From a virus, in the IMG/VR virus record IMGVR_UViG_3300025646_005482, positions 96,331-160,330 of that record: a DNA stretch of 64,000 nt; one strand, 5' to 3'. Position 1 is the first letter of the stretch; each line of letters begins with the position of its first letter. The position numbers and the translations under genes are program-made. The notes under the pieces are model-generated. The model was not told where the DNA came from. It was given only the letters and a program-made list of their open reading frames with translations, and did not search any database. Positions 12,415-20,496 of the stretch are shown piece by piece.

Positions 12415-15400
12415 ATGGCATTGTTAACAGGATTTGACGAATTAGATCCGGGTGCGGATACTTTTTCTGATTGGTTAAACAAGACCAACGAACTTGTCTT
12501 GTACCTCAGAGGAAGTACTGACGCAGGTCAAACTTCTATCATGACCGCCAACTCTCAGCTTGGTGGTTCTCTCACTTATGGTAATGCTACACTTTGGGGT
12601 CAAATGGCTGCCAACTCTATGGTAGTATTCAATAATGGTGATGACGATGATTTTTCTGCGAACGGTGAATATGGCGGTCTGAGAGGTGGTACTTGGGTTG
12701 CAGCTGCAAATGCTATTCTAACCGATACACTTTACGTAGTATCTAATACCACATTTACTGACGATACTATCAAAGTTAACGTCAACTCTGTATACGGTCT
12801 AGTAGTTGAAAACACAATCGATGCAAATGGCGATGTATTGTTTATCGGAGCAGGCGGTTCGAATACCGATCCTGAATTACAATGGGAAGCAAACAATGCT
12901 ACTCTTAATTGGAATGATAATATCAAGGCCACTTTTGGTACTGGAGATGACCTTGAGGTCTATTATACAGGAACTCGAGGAAATGTAAACACCGATATTC
13001 TAGATATTCGTGGTTCTACTAATACAAACATCTTCACAGATGACTTTGAGATGCGCTCTCAGGCCAACAATGAGTTGATGTTAACAGCAAATGTCGCGAA
13101 CGGCGTCGAGCTTTATTGGGATGGCATCAAGAAAGTATCATCAAATACACATGGTGTTGAAGTATACGGTCAAGTTATTGCTGATAATGGATTTGTTACT
13201 TACAACAACCAACCTATCGAGATGGGTGGCGCGAACTACGCAGCAGCCCATAACTTCACCATCGTCACTGATGGCACAGATACAACTATAACAGAAACCT
13301 CTAACGATTTATCAGTTCGCGTTGAGGATAACTTCCGCGTTACTGATGATACAGGTGCTACTAGCCTCATCGTTGCTAATACATCTGGTGAAGTTACACT
13401 GTATCACAACAATAATCAAAAGATGCAGACAAATGCTTACGGTGTAGAAATCACTGGAGAAGCAAATACTGATACGCTGCGTGTTGGTTCCGATGCAAAC
13501 TTTGATAATAATACTCTGAATTCCAATAGTGTCCATTGGGATGCCACTCTTGAAGTGTGGAATTATCGTGATGATGTTAAGGCTACATTCGGTGATTCGG
13601 ACGATTGGACTTTGTACTATGATGCAGCTGGCAGAGCATATTCAAATGTAGATAATATGGATATTCGGGCTAGAACCGATATGAATATTATTACAGACGT
13701 CTTTGAATTAAAATCAGAAACTGGTCCAGAATTGTATATCTCTGCTGGTGTTGCAGATAATAGCACCGTAAGATTGTATTACGAAGGAAATGAAAGACTT
13801 CAGACAAATACATACGGTGTTGAAGTTACCGGACAATTAGTTGCAAATGGTGGTATCGTTGCATATAATAATCAAAAGTTGGAGATGGGCGGTACAAACT
13901 ACGCTGCAGCTCACAATTTCGAAATTTATACAGATGGTACCGATAGCCATATTACAGAAACTGGTGGCGGCGATCTTATTGTACAAGCCAATAATATACA
14001 AATCGAAGATACAAGTGGCCAAGCGTACTTCTGTGGTACTTCGGGATTGGGAGCTTCTGTCCATTATAACGGTGCTATCAAACTAATTACCACAAATATT
14101 GGTATTGATATTACAGGCCAAGCAAACACGACTACACTACGAGTGCAAGGAAACGCCGCGTTTGAAAATGATGGCGGTGTTGAGTCGATGCATTGGCATT
14201 CTAATGACGCTGTGCACGGTACACATTTACACTTCGAAGATGATGTTCAAATTAAAATGGGTGCCGCTCATGATTTTGTCATATATCACGAGCCCGGTGG
14301 CAATAGCTATATTAAAGAACTGGGTAACGGCGATTTAGTATTACAAGCGAATAACATGCAACTTGAAGATACTTCAGGTCAAGCATACTTCTGCGGTACT
14401 GCTGGATCTGGAGCATCGATGCATTTTAATGGTGCTCAAAAACTTATCACTACAAATATTGGTCTTGATATTACTGGCGAAGCCAATACTGATACCTTGC
14501 GTGTACAATCGACTACTTTACTAGAAGATGATGTTTATTTCGATGGTACAACAGCTGATCAATTGCATTGGGATTCATCGCAAAATGAATTACACTATAA
14601 AGACAATGTTTCAGCAGTCTTTGGCAACACAGATGATCTTAAAATTTACCACGATGGCACTGATGGTCGAATTGTAGAATCTACCTCTGGTAATTTACAT
14701 GTAACTGCAAACAATCTTATTCTAGAAGATACCGACGGTAATCAGTATGTCTGCGGCCTTGCAGGTTTAGGAACGTCTATTCACTACGCTGGCGCTACTA
14801 AGATTATCACTACGAATATTGGTATCGATATTACAGGTGAAGCTAATACTGATACGCTACGAGTGAAGTCTACAACAGATCTTGAAGACGATATCAGAAT
14901 ACAAGGTTCAACTAACTCTGACACAGTGACATGGGATAAATCAGCTAATACACTTAACTTAGACGACTACAACTATCTGACATTCGGTACTGGTGGTGAT
15001 TTTACTATTCATCACGACGGCAGCAACACATATATGACCGAAATTGGTGTTGGTCACCTTCATGTACAAGCCAATAATGTACAAATTGAAGACACAGATG
15101 GAGATGCATATTTCTGTGGATTAGCCGGAGCAGGAGCTTCTATACACTTTAACGGTGCACAAAAACTTATTACCACTGCAACTGGTGTCGATGTAACTGG
15201 AAAAGTAGTCACAGATTCATTGCAAGTTGATGGTCATGTAGATCTTGGAGCTTCTGCAGCAGATACCATCAGCGTACTTGGTGAATTTGACACGGCATTG
15301 ATTCCTGCAGTCGCTACAGCGAATGTTGGTTCTGTAGCTGATCCATGGGATTGGGGATACTTTAACGATATCGTTGTTGCTAATACAGCGACTATCTTAA

Positions 15401-15777
15401 ATCTTGAAGTAACTACACTCGAAGCCAACGGTGTAGCATTTACTGGTACTGGTGATGATGTCACGACTACTTCTACGACTATTATTGATTCGTTTGAATA
15501 TACTCAAACACAAGGATTTAAGTTCTTTGTACACGGTGAAAATATCAATGATGCCTCTTCTGGTTATGCGGTTGAAATCAATGTAATTGTAACAGATAAT
15601 AAAGACATCTACTATACACGATATGGCGAAGTTGAAAATAATATGTCAGATGTCGTGATTGTTCCTGCGCTGGCAGCTAACACAACTCACGTAATTCTGA
15701 ATGCAACGTGTGGTTCTGCGAGTGGTACAGATATACATAGATTCAAAGTTCTGAAGATAGAGACGAGAGCATCTTAA
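12415..15777 (+). CDS. Long tail-fibre-like structural protein with internal repeats
   Basis: N-terminal TFSDWLNKTNEL; repeated FG..DL.IYHDG..S.I and LY..G..K..T...G..ITG units; C-terminal IDSF..K..V..E..YG domain of marine phage fibres. Confidence 0.75.
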   Translation: MALLTGFDELDPGADTFSDWLNKTNELVLYLRGSTDAGQTSIMTANSQLGGSLTYGNATLWGQMAANSMVVFNNGDDDDFSANGEYGGLRGGTWVAAANAILTDTLYVVSNTTFTDDTIKVNVNSVYGLVVENTIDANGDVLFIGAGGSNTDPELQWEANNATLNWNDNIKATFGTGDDLEVYYTGTRGNVNTDILDIRGSTNTNIFTDDFEMRSQANNELMLTANVANGVELYWDGIKKVSSNTHGVEVYGQVIADNGFVTYNNQPIEMGGANYAAAHNFTIVTDGTDTTITETSNDLSVRVEDNFRVTDDTGATSLIVANTSGEVTLYHNNNQKMQTNAYGVEITGEANTDTLRVGSDANFDNNTLNSNSVHWDATLEVWNYRDDVKATFGDSDDWTLYYDAAGRAYSNVDNMDIRARTDMNIITDVFELKSETGPELYISAGVADNSTVRLYYEGNERLQTNTYGVEVTGQLVANGGIVAYNNQKLEMGGTNYAAAHNFEIYTDGTDSHITETGGGDLIVQANNIQIEDTSGQAYFCGTSGLGASVHYNGAIKLITTNIGIDITGQANTTTLRVQGNAAFENDGGVESMHWHSNDAVHGTHLHFEDDVQIKMGAAHDFVIYHEPGGNSYIKELGNGDLVLQANNMQLEDTSGQAYFCGTAGSGASMHFNGAQKLITTNIGLDITGEANTDTLRVQSTTLLEDDVYFDGTTADQLHWDSSQNELHYKDNVSAVFGNTDDLKIYHDGTDGRIVESTSGNLHVTANNLILEDTDGNQYVCGLAGLGTSIHYAGATKIITTNIGIDITGEANTDTLRVKSTTDLEDDIRIQGSTNSDTVTWDKSANTLNLDDYNYLTFGTGGDFTIHHDGSNTYMTEIGVGHLHVQANNVQIEDTDGDAYFCGLAGAGASIHFNGAQKLITTATGVDVTGKVVTDSLQVDGHVDLGASAADTISVLGEFDTALIPAVATANVGSVADPWDWGYFNDIVVANTATILNLEVTTLEANGVAFTGTGDDVTTTSTTIIDSFEYTQTQGFKFFVHGENINDASSGYAVEINVIVTDNKDIYYTRYGEVENNMSDVVIVPALAANTTHVILNATCGSASGTDIHRFKVLKIETRAS

Positions 15778-16205: not shown

Positions 16206-17228
16206 ATGGCCGTATCATCACAAAAATTTGACACACTCGATGGATTAGTTGTCACGGGCCCGATGGAAATTGGCGGCAATGTGGCTGTCGACACGAACGT
16301 CCTTTTTGTAGACACTGTAAACAATCGTGTAGGTATCAATAAAACTCCAACTGTTGCGTTAGATGTTAGTGGTGCTGTAGCTATTACGAGCGGAAATATT
16401 ACTGGCCTAACTAATCTTGGAGCTGGTAATCTAAGTCTAAACACTGATACTATTACTGGTACAGCAGGTATAACACTAGACGCAGTGGGAGATATTTCTC
16501 TAGATGCTGATGGTGCCGACATTCTGTTAAAGGACGCTGGTACACAATACGGCGCTCTCACTAATTCTTCTGGCAATCTTGTAGTAAAGTCAGGTACTAC
16601 TACCGCGATGACACTTACATCGGCAGGTGGAGTTGTATTTTCTGATAACTTAGGTATATCAAACGGCAAACGTATCGATTTCGGTACGGTCATGGACATG
16701 ACTGCAGACTCACAGGGTGTTTTATTAAATGCAAACACATATCATCAAGGGTCTATCGTCAGTTATTTTGGCGGAGTAAAAGATACAAATACGTATCTAC
16801 AATTTAATGGTGCTGATTCTTTCCAAATAACAACTGGCGGAACAGTTAGAATGACCGTTAATAATAGCGGTGTGACTATTCCAGGGGCCTTGTTATTCGA
16901 TAGTGTTGCATCAGATCAACCATATTATGAAACAATCAATGCTCCTGCTGGACTAACATTTAATTTGAATAATGGATCAGCGTTTACTAAATCTGGTGGA
17001 GGAAGCGGAGGAACTGTAGTGTTTACCATGCCTTCAAGTCCCGGTACAAATAGTTTTGCATGGACAATTAAATTTATAAACTCTGGCGCATTGACTTGGC
17101 CAGCTAGTGTCAAGTGGTCTGAAGGAGTTCAACCGCCAGAATCTTCTGGAACTGATATATATAGTTTTGTAACGTACGACGGTGGAACCAACATCTATGG
17201 CTCACTCGCAGTTAGAAACGCGTCGTAA
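16206..17228 (+). CDS. Short fibre protein with shared C-terminal WP..V.WSEG..PP..GTDIYSF domain
   Basis: VDTNVLFVDTVNNRVGI fibre motif; C-terminus paralogous to those of the genes at 25844 and 27491. Confidence 0.7.
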   Translation: MAVSSQKFDTLDGLVVTGPMEIGGNVAVDTNVLFVDTVNNRVGINKTPTVALDVSGAVAITSGNITGLTNLGAGNLSLNTDTITGTAGITLDAVGDISLDADGADILLKDAGTQYGALTNSSGNLVVKSGTTTAMTLTSAGGVVFSDNLGISNGKRIDFGTVMDMTADSQGVLLNANTYHQGSIVSYFGGVKDTNTYLQFNGADSFQITTGGTVRMTVNNSGVTIPGALLFDSVASDQPYYETINAPAGLTFNLNNGSAFTKSGGGSGGTVVFTMPSSPGTNSFAWTIKFINSGALTWPASVKWSEGVQPPESSGTDIYSFVTYDGGTNIYGSLAVRNAS

Positions 17229-17238
17229 GGGGTAAGAT

Positions 17239-19116
17239 ATGGCTGGTGCTGGTGGTAAAGGGTTTTTAGATAGAACTTGGGCTGCAACATATGATCAGAC
17301 CTCAGCGGGTACTGCTCCTGGTTCTGACCTCAATGTAACATACGGCAAACAAATAATAGAAGTATCAGCAAGAGGTGGAACGGCTAGCGCTCCTATCTTG
17401 CAACCTGCTTATTCCGTCACAACCAATTATCCTGCTCGCGATTACACACAAAGCGCTTATCAGGTCACAACATTTTATGCAGATGAGATAACTAATTATC
17501 CTTCTCGTATCTTTACTCAGCCTGCATATTCAGTAATTACAAACTATCCGTCACGTAATGTTGCTGATCAACCAGCGTATGCAGTAATTACTAATTATCC
17601 TAGTCGTTCTACTAATCAACCTGCATATTCAGTAATTACAAACTATCCGTCTCGTGGTAACCCTGCGCAGCCTGCGTATAGTGTGACTACAAACTATCCG
17701 AGTCGAGCCGTACCTGATCAGCCAGCATATTCAGTAACGACTAACTATCCGAGTCGAGCCGTACCTGATCAGCCAGCATATTCAGTAACGACTAACTATC
17801 CAGCTCGTGCGACACCTGATCAACCAGCGTATGGTGTCACAACTAACTATCCTGCACGGCTATATCAACAGGCTTCTTATTCAAGTATTGTATATTATCC
17901 TGCTAGAACTAATTATCAGAGTTATCCTGCACGAACGACTAACTATCCGTCGCGCAACACACCATCACAGCCCGCATATACTACAAACTATCCTGCGCGA
18001 ACGACTAACTATCCAGCTCGAGCTGTACCGAATCAGCCCTCTTATACTGCAAGTTTTCCAGCGCGTTTCGTGCCTAATCAGCCTGCATACTCGCAAAATT
18101 TCCAAAACTTTAACATCTATATGGCATACTTGTGGGGGGTTATATATTATCCATCGCGTACGGTACCAAACCAGCCTGCGTATGTTGCTAGTTATCCAGC
18201 ACGTAACGTACCATCACAGCCCGGATATAGTGTAACTCAACCAGCATATAGTGTTTCTCATCCGGCCCGTGCTAATCCTGCACAGCCAGCATATAGTGTT
18301 ACTCAACCCGGTTATCAGGGTTCTGCGTATCAACCAGGATATTCTAATGTTACTAATTATCCTGCTAGAAATTATTATCAGAATGCATACTCTGTAACGA
18401 CAGCTTATCCGTCACGTGCTAATCCTGCGCAACCAGCATATAGTGTTACAACTAACTATCCGGCCCGTGCTAATCCTGCGCAACCAGCATATAGTGTGAC
18501 TACAAACTATCCATCACGAGCTAATCCTGCACAGCCAGCATATAGTGTAACTACAAACTATCCATCTCGTGCGACACCTGATCAACCAGCGTATAGTGTC
18601 ACGACTAACTATCCCTCTCGTAATTATTCAGAGGCAGCGTATAGTGTCACGACTAACTATCCATCGCGAGCTGTACCAAACCAACCTGCGTACTCTGTAG
18701 TGACAAATTATCCGTCACGTGCTACTACACAGCCTACATATTCTGTTACTCAACCAGCATATCAGGTTGTAACATATTATCCATCGCGAGTATATCAACA
18801 AGCAGCGTACAGTGTGATCACAAACTATCCATCTCGAGTAACAGCTGGTACCAGTGGTACAGCTACTACTTTGCAAATGACTGGCAAAGATGGTACTACA
18901 TATTTGTTGACAGCTCCAGGCACTGCGACGAATGTAGCTAACTACGCTGCTCCTCCCGTGGCTACTGCAGTATATGCAACTCTTTACGCGCCTGTGGTAA
19001 AAGAGCTAGCTAATGATCCTAATGAGGCAGATGTCACATTGGGTACAAGTCCTGCTGGTCAAACTAATCCGACATATCGGCCATTTGTCAATGTGAAGTA
19101 TGACGGCAACCCATAA
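17239..19116 (+). CDS. Pro/Tyr-rich repeat protein with mirror-symmetric arms (putative hairpin fibre or adhesin)
   Basis: 25 units related to QPAYSVTTNYPSR between a 54-aa N-terminal and a 92-aa C-terminal segment. SD-like AAGGGG upstream. Confidence 0.85.
   Translation: MAGAGGKGFLDRTWAATYDQTSAGTAPGSDLNVTYGKQIIEVSARGGTASAPILQPAYSVTTNYPARDYTQSAYQVTTFYADEITNYPSRIFTQPAYSVITNYPSRNVADQPAYAVITNYPSRSTNQPAYSVITNYPSRGNPAQPAYSVTTNYPSRAVPDQPAYSVTTNYPSRAVPDQPAYSVTTNYPARATPDQPAYGVTTNYPARLYQQASYSSIVYYPARTNYQSYPARTTNYPSRNTPSQPAYTTNYPARTTNYPARAVPNQPSYTASFPARFVPNQPAYSQNFQNFNIYMAYLWGVIYYPSRTVPNQPAYVASYPARNVPSQPGYSVTQPAYSVSHPARANPAQPAYSVTQPGYQGSAYQPGYSNVTNYPARNYYQNAYSVTTAYPSRANPAQPAYSVTTNYPARANPAQPAYSVTTNYPSRANPAQPAYSVTTNYPSRATPDQPAYSVTTNYPSRNYSEAAYSVTTNYPSRAVPNQPAYSVVTNYPSRATTQPTYSVTQPAYQVVTYYPSRVYQQAAYSVITNYPSRVTAGTSGTATTLQMTGKDGTTYLLTAPGTATNVANYAAPPVATAVYATLYAPVVKELANDPNEADVTLGTSPAGQTNPTYRPFVNVKYDGNP
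17401..18837 (+). repeat. Coding repeat array (mostly 48-51 bp units): arm 1 17401-18078, centre 18079-18159, arm 2 18160-18837
   Basis: Parsed from the translation; includes a perfect 51-bp tandem duplication at 17692-17801. Confidence 0.9.
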
Positions 19117-19159: not shown

Positions 19160-19786
19160 ATGTTTCAATTACCATACTCTCTTGTTCCTCCATACGAACT
19201 TCCCCATTTTGGTGTCATGGAAAAAGTGTTCGACGAAGAAGAAGTCGAACGCATTCGTTTCTATGAAAAAATTCTAGATTTTCAAGATGCTACGATTGTT
19301 GGGCAACAACAAGGCGATGAAGCTTCGCAAGAACAAACAGCCAGAATTGCAAAAAATGCAAGTATTCCACATGACGAAAATACTGTTTGGTTGTGGAATA
19401 AGATAGCGCATTTATCAGCAAAAGCAAATTATGATTTATTTTTATACGACATTTCTTTTCTCGAAGATTTAAGTTATACTGTCTACATAGGTACAGATAA
19501 CGGACACTATACAAAACACATAGATACTTCTTTATTTGGTTATCGCAGATACGATAGAAAAATATCTGGTATTTTAGTGTTGTCTGATCCAGATGAATAT
19601 GAAGGAGGCACTCTGAGTATTGATGTATACGGTGGCGCGCCTGAAGACAGATGGACGAGAATAGAAAAACCGAATAAAGGTGATTTAATTTTCTTTGATT
19701 CTAATTTCATTCACACGGTAGAACCAGTGACTAGTGGTAAACGTCAAGTGTTAGTATTTTGGGTACACGGTAAACAAAAACTATGA
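19160..19786 (+). CDS. 2OG-Fe(II) oxygenase (prolyl 4-hydroxylase/PKHD-like)
   Basis: HID iron motif, RKISGILVLSDPDEYEGG and distal H..V.PVTSGKR..LV.W. Confidence 0.9.
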   Translation: MFQLPYSLVPPYELPHFGVMEKVFDEEEVERIRFYEKILDFQDATIVGQQQGDEASQEQTARIAKNASIPHDENTVWLWNKIAHLSAKANYDLFLYDISFLEDLSYTVYIGTDNGHYTKHIDTSLFGYRRYDRKISGILVLSDPDEYEGGTLSIDVYGGAPEDRWTRIEKPNKGDLIFFDSNFIHTVEPVTSGKRQVLVFWVHGKQKL

Positions 19787-20496
19787 AAAGATTTTTTGGT
19801 AATGATATCATTGAGTTTTATACTTCTGATGATTTATATGGAAGTATACCCGAACCTGTAGAAGCAGCTAAATGTGTACCAGATTGGTTTAAAAAACTAA
19901 AACCATTCGTTGGAAGATCACGCGAAGGATTTCCTGAACCTACTGCAAAAAGATGCTTGCCTTTATTAGATGCGATGACTCACGGCTATATCATCCCATT
20001 ACAAGGTGATATTCATGTCATTTCTAATCATGATCTCAGTGTTATCAAGGCTAATGAACGAAACAGAGATGCTCTCTTCTTGATGGATGGACATCCTAGT
20101 TTTCAAGTAGATTCTGCTGCATGGCCAGTTCAAAAACAACATCCACTCAAATTTATCAATAAGTGGAGAATTAAAACGCGACCAGGTTGGTCGGTCCTTT
20201 TTACTGCGCCTTTAAATCATATTGGAATGCCATTTACAATTTTAAGTGGTGTTGTTGATAGTGATAAATATCATCGCGAGGTAAATTTTCCTGCAATATG
20301 GCATGTGCCTAATTATGATGGTACTTTAAAAGCTGGCATGCCATTAGCTCAAGTAATTCCATTTAAAAGAGAAAAGTTTCCTAAGGCAAAGCCGAGAGTA
20401 CAAAATAAAAAAGAAAGACAACATGAAGAAAAATTACGAGTTGCTATGGATAGCAGACATGGAGCTTATACTGAAGAGCTGAGAGAAAAGAGATAA
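19783..20496 (+). CDS. Conserved phage protein (DUF6065-like, probable dUTPase-like beta fold), paralog 1
   Basis: PDWFK..TAKRCLPLLDAMTHGYIIP..GVVDSD..NFP..AGMPLAQVIPFKR. Confidence 0.6.
   Translation: MKRFFGNDIIEFYTSDDLYGSIPEPVEAAKCVPDWFKKLKPFVGRSREGFPEPTAKRCLPLLDAMTHGYIIPLQGDIHVISNHDLSVIKANERNRDALFLMDGHPSFQVDSAAWPVQKQHPLKFINKWRIKTRPGWSVLFTAPLNHIGMPFTILSGVVDSDKYHREVNFPAIWHVPNYDGTLKAGMPLAQVIPFKREKFPKAKPRVQNKKERQHEEKLRVAMDSRHGAYTEELREKR

Follow-up and report, generated by a model that had tools for sequence, protein, structure and literature searches.

A repeat protein in the fiber module of an uncultured T4-like myovirus has two arms in mirror order and probably folds back on itself

The 64-kb stretch of viral DNA analyzed here (IMG/VR record IMGVR_UViG_3300025646_005482, positions 96,331 to 160,330; hereafter the window) covers the structural region of a T4-like myovirus, with PHROG matches to a tail sheath, a portal and a major head protein. 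Identity of the major head protein to its counterparts in cultured phages does not exceed 62%; the best matches were Stenotrophomonas phage DLP6, Sinorhizobium phages phiM12 and phiN3, and Pelagibacter phage HTVC008M. Within this region lies the subject of this report, a gene for a 625-amino-acid (aa) repeat protein whose two arms of short units mirror each other along the chain. The gene belongs to a conserved fiber module, which reads, in order, a 1120-aa fiber-like protein, a 138-aa protein, a 340-aa tail-fiber-like protein, the repeat protein, a 2-oxoglutarate (2OG)-Fe(II) oxygenase and often a DUF6065 protein. This order was kept in all 10 IMG/VR loci compared, and full-length homologs of the repeat protein, flanked by the same neighbors, were found in approximately 30 loci, both viral and metagenomic.

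When cut at its Y-P-x-R anchors, the protein yielded an N-terminal domain, about 28 units mostly 16–17 aa long, and a 92-aa C-terminal domain. The repeat region was then segmented into cores, linkers and half-unit inserts, which placed two arms on either side of a short aromatic segment (Table 1). Segment lengths are equal between mirror partners in 24 out of 24 cases, and so are the total lengths of the arms (226 vs 226 aa). For the nine outer linkers alone, the lengths would match in 1 of 504 orderings, and the mirror layout as a whole is far beyond chance. The half-unit inserts follow the same symmetry: the second-half insert T-N-Y-P-S-R of arm 1 stands opposite the first-half insert Q-P-x-Y-S-V-T of arm 2. 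In other clades the insert types have been traded between the arms, yet a first-half insert still faces a second-half one, as would be expected from the antiparallel packing of two-part units.

At the DNA level, no arm-to-arm inverted repeats were detected, which rules out a stem formed by the DNA or RNA. Since DNA duplication is unable to create a mirror order of peptide units, selection on the protein must be what maintains the layout.

Table 1. Features of the repeat protein gene and its immediate neighbors; coordinates refer to the window.
Feature	Coordinates	Strand	Basis and remarks
340-aa tail-fiber-like protein, conserved upstream neighbor	16206..17228	+	PHROG tail fiber matches; synteny in 10/10 loci
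625-aa repeat protein gene	17239..19116	+	Open reading frame (ORF) call; fourth gene of the conserved fiber module
N-terminal domain, aa 1-54	17239..17400	+	Most conserved part together with the C-terminal domain (alignments); predicted local distance difference test (pLDDT) 62-90 from ~aa 15
Arm 1, aa 55-280, 226 aa	17401..18078	+	12 unit cores, 3-4-aa linkers, second-half-type half-unit inserts
Arm-1 block of four 17-aa units (GNPA, AVPD, AVPD, ATPD), aa 140-207	17656..17859	+	Segmentation; two units in L011/L012
Exact 51-bp tandem duplication, 110 nt, 2.16 copies	17692..17801	+	Offset-51 self-match; Tandem Repeats Finder rows
Arm-1 34-aa block absent from L011/L012, aa 175-208	17761..17862	+	MAFFT; exact placement within the array ambiguous
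Tip segment, aa 281-307, 27 aa	18079..18159	+	Aromatic irregular unit on the mirror axis; most divergent region between relatives
Arm 2, aa 308-533, 226 aa	18160..18837	+	Mirrors arm 1; first-half-type half-unit inserts
Arm-2 34-aa block absent from L011/L012, aa 383-416	18385..18486	+	MAFFT; mirror of the arm-1 block
Arm-2 block of four 17-aa units (ANPA x3, ATPD), aa 394-461	18418..18621	+	Segmentation; two units in L011/L012
C-terminal domain, aa 534-625	18838..19113	+	pLDDT 64-88; one β-sandwich with the N-terminal domain in the model
2OG-Fe(II) oxygenase (PF13640), conserved downstream neighbor	19160..19786	+	Pfam E=6e-15; directly downstream in 10/10 loci

The protein matched no Pfam family at E ≤ 0.01 and no PHROG at E ≤ 0.001. 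Among GenBank phages (50,697 records), tblastn found no match for the whole protein, its N-terminal domain or its C-terminal domain, and megablast of the locus found none either. A search of 1.8 billion representatives returned 25 matches at E ≤ 1e-3, a few of which were spurious eukaryotic repeats, so the family is rare. The loci L001–L038 came from a scan of metagenome and viral contigs with a profile of the N-terminal domain alignment; a scan of viral contigs with the single protein gave nothing. Together with the window protein and P0001–P0011, they form a family with conserved ends, two repeat arms around an irregular center, and a fixed gene position between the 340-aa fiber gene and the 2OG oxygenase gene. 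The N-terminal domain carries the motif G-K-G-F-x-D-R-T-W, and the C-terminal domain ends in I-N-x-K-Y-D. Our literature search found no description of this family, which is undescribed and without a relative in Pfam, PHROGs, the PDB or the cultured phages in GenBank.

The nearest relatives, L011 and L012 (555 aa each), share this mirror layout; the identity of L011 to the window protein is 79%. Identity to L011 amounts to 65% in the tip vs 77–84% elsewhere, with the same trend in other clades: the two end domains, referred to below as the head, are the most conserved between relatives and the tip is the least. Some members depart from the common plan. P0001, a 352-aa relative from a 2048-nt Logan contig, retains the two end domains, but the 12 units between them form a length-palindromic array with no irregular center; it may be a minimal natural form, or its repeats may have collapsed. 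The center of L030 (ORF aa ~299–352) is Cys-rich, with four Cys in place of the aromatic tip, and the units of its clade belong to a different class pair, a 19-aa K-type and an 18-aa P-type.

Comparison of the relatives revealed that unit counts shift in both arms together, in line with the original prediction that fiber length may be tuned by paired indels. The window has 4+4 of the 17-aa units where L011 and L012 have 2+2, and in the MAFFT alignment of these proteins no gap exceeds one residue apart from two 34-aa blocks, of which each arm carries one. The blocks occupy mirrored places (175+416 = 208+383 = 591, with an axis constant of 588). The same was observed in another group, with 8+8 units in L008, L009 and L029 against 10+10 in L010: alignment of L008 with L010 leaves 34 gap columns in one arm and 32 in the other, which place an extra two-unit block at mirrored positions, and the alternation of E-T-S-type with T-x-Y-type units is preserved despite the indel. 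Equal counts were also found in L001 (23/23), L003 (20/20), L014 (13/13), and L016, L019 and L020 (12/12 each). Length change by paired indels under selection on arm pairing is thus well supported by the homologs.

Covariation between the arms, likewise anticipated for homologs, was found in the two members with the longest arms listed above, L001 and L003, and there the complementarity of facing units is confined to the mirror register. In L001 (973 aa), a 31-aa center separates 23+23 units, and at mirror offset 0 complementary classes meet in 19 of its 23 facing pairs: TV[AQ]YTQYP with TQVNTAYP, and NTSxTTNYP with STVxNTAYG, each in both orientations. Mutual information at this offset is 1.76 bits, a value attained in 0 of 5000 permutations (P < 2e-4), compared with at most 1.16 bits in 21 other mirror or direct registers. 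At the mirror offset that applies to junctions, the Asp-ending type of L001 never stands opposite itself (0 of 22 pairs). In L003 (782 aa, 20+20 units), QNQTD stands opposite SV[IV]TN in 17 of 19 pairs, the top of 26 registers (P = 0.006), and the hydropathy of facing units is strongly anticorrelated (r = −0.87, P = 0.0002). All nine classified pairs of L030 are complementary too, although the pattern there is periodic and hence weaker evidence.

Facing units are not always equally long: in L003, units of 15 aa stand opposite units of 14 aa, and in L030 the lengths are 19 and 18 aa. Pairing thus has to be modular, unit against unit, rather than a residue-by-residue ladder, and a two-stranded hairpin paired residue by residue is disfavored. 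The earlier proposal of selection on cross-strand pairing, drawn from the window, thus holds in part: the covariation and paired indels of the homologs speak for it, but the linkers of the window alone and residue-level pairing do not.

The window protein also bears the marks of local sequence turnover. The perfect 51-bp tandem duplication first noticed in arm 1 was recovered as a 59-nt exact self-match at offset 51, starting from position 17692; other unit pairs are just 60–90% identical, so this duplication is very recent and not a product of chance. The near-identical tandem ANPA units described for arm 2, with a DNA sequence different from that of arm 1, were located at 18418–18570, slightly beyond the ~18415–18535 initially given. 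These three units are near-identical in protein and share 43–46 of 51 nt (84–90%) pairwise, and they use other codons than arm 1 (for Ser, AGT vs TCA). As to the matched local expansion that had been read from these arrays, the counts are indeed equal (4+4), but the arm-1 copies are identical and the arm-2 copies 10–16% diverged, so the expansions were not simultaneous, or the perfect copy stems from gene conversion. Behind the perfect duplication there is thus either a phase of briefly unequal unit counts or a conversion that left the count unchanged. A direct segmental duplication was considered as the origin of the 4+4 arrangement and rejected: the core identities in direct register are 28, 29, 28, 33 and 33 of 39, no better than those of other cross-arm pairs.

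Structure prediction with AlphaFold, performed on monomers only, was confident for the window protein only at aa ~15–90 and ~500–625. The repeat units were drawn as alternating strands of 7 and ~5 residues, and DSSP assigned strands only in the models of both the window protein and P0001. With VIA-align, single jelly-roll domains of ~100 aa aligned across the model range ~14–625 at Z 5–6.4, which is middling and uninformative on family assignment; the matched folds included TNF-like proteins, nucleoplasmin, and viral capsid or fiber heads. As single jelly rolls align across both ends of the chain, the N- and C-terminal parts are, in the model, one β-sandwich domain. Foldseek against the PDB returned nothing at E ≤ 1e-3, the ESM Atlas gave no usable match and its own model was poor, and neither the Foldseek nor the VIA-align search listed a triple β-spiral shaft.

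Taken together, the protein is probably a structural fiber or adhesin of an uncultured T4-like myovirus, folded back so that its arms are paired unit by unit in mirror order. The chain would leave a small β-sandwich head made of the N- and C-terminal domains, go out along arm 1, turn at the aromatic variable tip and come back along arm 2, so that the 14–19-aa units of the two arms would lie against each other one to one, antiparallel and in mirrored sequence. We infer that the arms are in physical contact and pair within one chain, each unit contributing two short strands and each unit pair adding a rise of roughly 1 nm. Because the arms would need to match unit for unit, length could shift only by gain or loss in both, and facing units and linkers would be held as compatible, often complementary, types. 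Variation would be supplied by tandem duplication, gene conversion within arms and occasional whole-unit exchange between arms. Selection on pairing would then filter the variants, and the AVPD duplication and the ANPA array of the window would be local products of this supply. The conserved head would dock on a conserved fiber and the tip would be the host-facing end, which fits the head being the most conserved part of the protein and the tip the least.

Several observations weigh against this fold-back reading. AlphaFold pLDDT falls below 50 at aa 90–498 and likewise in the middle of P0001, no structure shows the arms in contact, and the fold matches are of the middling quality noted above. 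The summed side-chain volumes of facing units are not anticorrelated in L001 and L003 (r = +0.19 and +0.24), and the unit cores of the window are homotypic. Furthermore, two assemblies have unbalanced arms. L006 has 9 vs 12 units: compared with L019 (L006:5001-6671 vs L019:2656-4455), 144 nt corresponding to three arm-1 units are absent, and these are present in L016, L019 and L020. The deletion lies between near-identical G-Y-Y-Q-G-A-Y units and has removed the arm-1 partner of an E-S-S-type unit still present in arm 2 of L006. L031 differs from L030 (L031:1953-3740 vs L030:54-2063) by a 222-nt deletion of four units in arm 2 only; elsewhere the two show 5 nt differences, and the repeat flanking the deletion is 40 nt long. 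Both L006 and L031 may be assembly collapses or real variants. Finally, the linker pattern of the window is not significant when taken alone, as set out below.

An xNPA linker stands opposite an xxPD linker in all four mirror pairs of the window blocks (GNPA/ATPD, AVPD/ANPA, AVPD/ANPA and ATPD/ANPA), exactly as first described. The pattern is real but not significant alone (P ~0.25): with one NPA among the four arm-1 linkers and one xPD among the four arm-2 linkers, one in every four random arrangements would be fully complementary. In L011 and L012, facing linkers are homotypic (e.g., TVPS/AIPS, AVPG/AVPA and TVPS/TVPS). Clustering of the 51-nt unit DNA grouped the AVPD units with each other and two ANPA units with each other, and the expectation that units cluster within arms failed for both of the units taken to be swapped. 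The nearest unit to the ATPD unit of arm 1 is its namesake in arm 2 (45 of 51 nt, with 3 of 15 same-residue codons differing), and the arm-1 GNPA unit falls in the arm-2 ANPA cluster. Since the swapped units group with the other arm, the swap looks like a whole-unit exchange or shared inheritance, and the idea of an RNA-like compensatory swap by compensating point changes was not upheld.

These data bear on an alternative to which we give about an even chance, namely that the arms do pair and their counts are selected, but that the NPA/xPD pattern of the window is accidental. In that case, local duplication and conversion would have made the linkers uniform within each arm (AVPD in arm 1 and ANPA in arm 2), the end units would have kept older types common to both arms, and there would be no selection for linker complementarity. 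The one-in-four chance of the pattern, the clustering of units by linker type across arms and the like-with-like linkers of the nearest relatives are all in agreement with this. So is the presence of ANPA at aa 345 in place of the relatives' TVAN, suggesting spread within arm 2, and the fact that in direct order both blocks begin with xNPA and end with ATPD. On the other hand, facing units as a rule belong to complementary classes in L001, L003, L030, L008 and L010, the D-ending junction of L001 never faces itself, and the D-bearing linkers of the window never face each other either. The specific NPA/xPD linker covariation is therefore best treated as unproven.

The complementarity seen in the long-armed homologs could reach further than simple compatibility. 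We tentatively raise the possibility, which we would not rate as high as even, that the arms carry a protein-level pairing code, in which unit classes (e.g., TVAYTQ with TQVNTA, or QNQTD with SVITN) pair only with their partner class and the order of arm 1 is complemented in reverse in arm 2. If so, the aperiodic order of classes would set a unique zipping register of the β fold-back, much as base pairing does in an RNA stem, and paired insertions of units would let fiber length evolve in quantized steps. A natural heterotypic “β-zipper with an address code” would represent a new architectural principle, applicable to the design of rods of programmable length.

The covariation and the unit counts would fit equally well if pairing took place between two antiparallel extended chains, arm 1 of one against arm 2 of the other, with no fold-back at all. 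We consider this arrangement unlikely, given that the AlphaFold monomer model joins the N- and C-terminal parts in one domain with a pLDDT of 80–90. Moreover, the irregular and most variable segment lies exactly at the axis across members (P0001 being without a center), as expected of a turn or tip, and phage fibers are, as a rule, parallel trimers, those of T4 among them (PMC5537660).

It is highly improbable, and effectively refuted, that the protein is a usual parallel trimeric shaft with its repeats running one way, like a triple β-spiral, and that the mirror features are leftovers of direct duplication plus chance: its units of 14–19 aa with Pro at the turns do resemble the ~15-residue shaft repeats, the best cross-arm DNA register over 300 nt is direct (74% identity), and the arm-1 and arm-2 ATPD units are close in DNA, but direct duplication gives a translational order whereas the 24 segment lengths match only in mirror order, the direct registers of L001 and L003 are without signal, mirrored paired indels are left unexplained, and core identity in direct register is no higher than in other cross-arm pairs.

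The neighbors of the gene are consistent features of the related loci. The PF13640 oxygenase belongs to a prolyl-4-hydroxylase-like branch and follows the repeat gene in the window and in L001–L010; it may be responsible for a putative hydroxylation of the Pro-, Asn- and Tyr-rich repeats. The DUF6065 protein gene (19783-20496, +) overlaps the oxygenase stop by 4 nt and is conserved in 6 of the 10 related loci. On the other side of the module, the 1120-aa protein (12415-15777, +) has its own internal repeats of ~100–200 aa and several PHROG matches to tail-fiber and virion-structural proteins, and its gene is kept upstream in all related loci. A 142-aa alternative-frame ORF within the repeat gene (17807-18235, +) most likely just reflects a sequence that is repetitive and poor in stops.

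Host range in phages is determined mainly by the fibers, and the catalogue of fiber folds is still growing. The family described here offers a defined structural target, with natural length variants (8+8, 10+10, 12+12, 20+20 and 23+23 units) from which the rise per unit and the register could be obtained. If the complementary classes reflect direct contacts, they would provide a natural rule set for heterotypic β-unit pairing and a clean example of co-evolution within a molecule that can be seen without large alignments.

Among known viral fibers, triple β-spiral shafts such as those of the adenovirus fiber and reovirus sigma1 consist of ~15-residue pseudo-repeats with Pro or Gly turns and form one-way parallel trimers. 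They share with the window protein the use of short repeats in a viral fiber, but the spiral is without mirror order and there is no Pfam or fold match between the two. The gp38 adhesin of phage S16 is small and globular, is built as a polyglycine-II sandwich and is encoded by the last gene of a T4-like fiber module. It resembles the window protein in having short repeated motifs in two antiparallel layers and variable distal loops; however, the motifs of gp38 are Gly-rich, whereas the window protein has no Gly-rich motifs and, instead of a globular body, long arms of variable length.

Outside the viruses, the architecture of SMC and Rad50 proteins comprises a head to which both termini contribute, an intramolecular antiparallel arm and an apex (PMC5526789). 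The topology would be alike in the head, which in the AlphaFold model of the window protein is made from both termini, the long fold-back segments kept at matching lengths and the apex in the middle of the sequence. The arms of SMC and Rad50 are, however, α-helical coiled coils of ATPases that act on DNA, while the window protein, a virion protein rich in Pro and Tyr, is predicted to have β structure and has no Pfam ATPase domain; the resemblance is only an analogy, not homology.

A further parallel is the needle of gp37 at the tip of the T4 long tail fiber, where, in the work of Bartual and colleagues from 2010, the chain reportedly runs to the tip and returns. Both are distal fiber proteins of T4-like phages in which N-side and C-side segments would lie side by side, with the tip facing the receptor in gp37. 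The gp37 needle is a trimer held by His-x-His iron sites (PMC6957217), whereas the window protein has a single His (segment d11) and no H-x-H motif. Pfam, PHROG, Foldseek and VIA-align gave no sequence or fold match between the two. We know of no description of regular 14–19-aa units, complementary unit classes or paired unit indels for gp37. The AlphaFold model, which leaves the arms unmodeled, places the N- and C-terminal parts in one domain, and the mirror covariation would likewise fit a course to the tip and back as in gp37.

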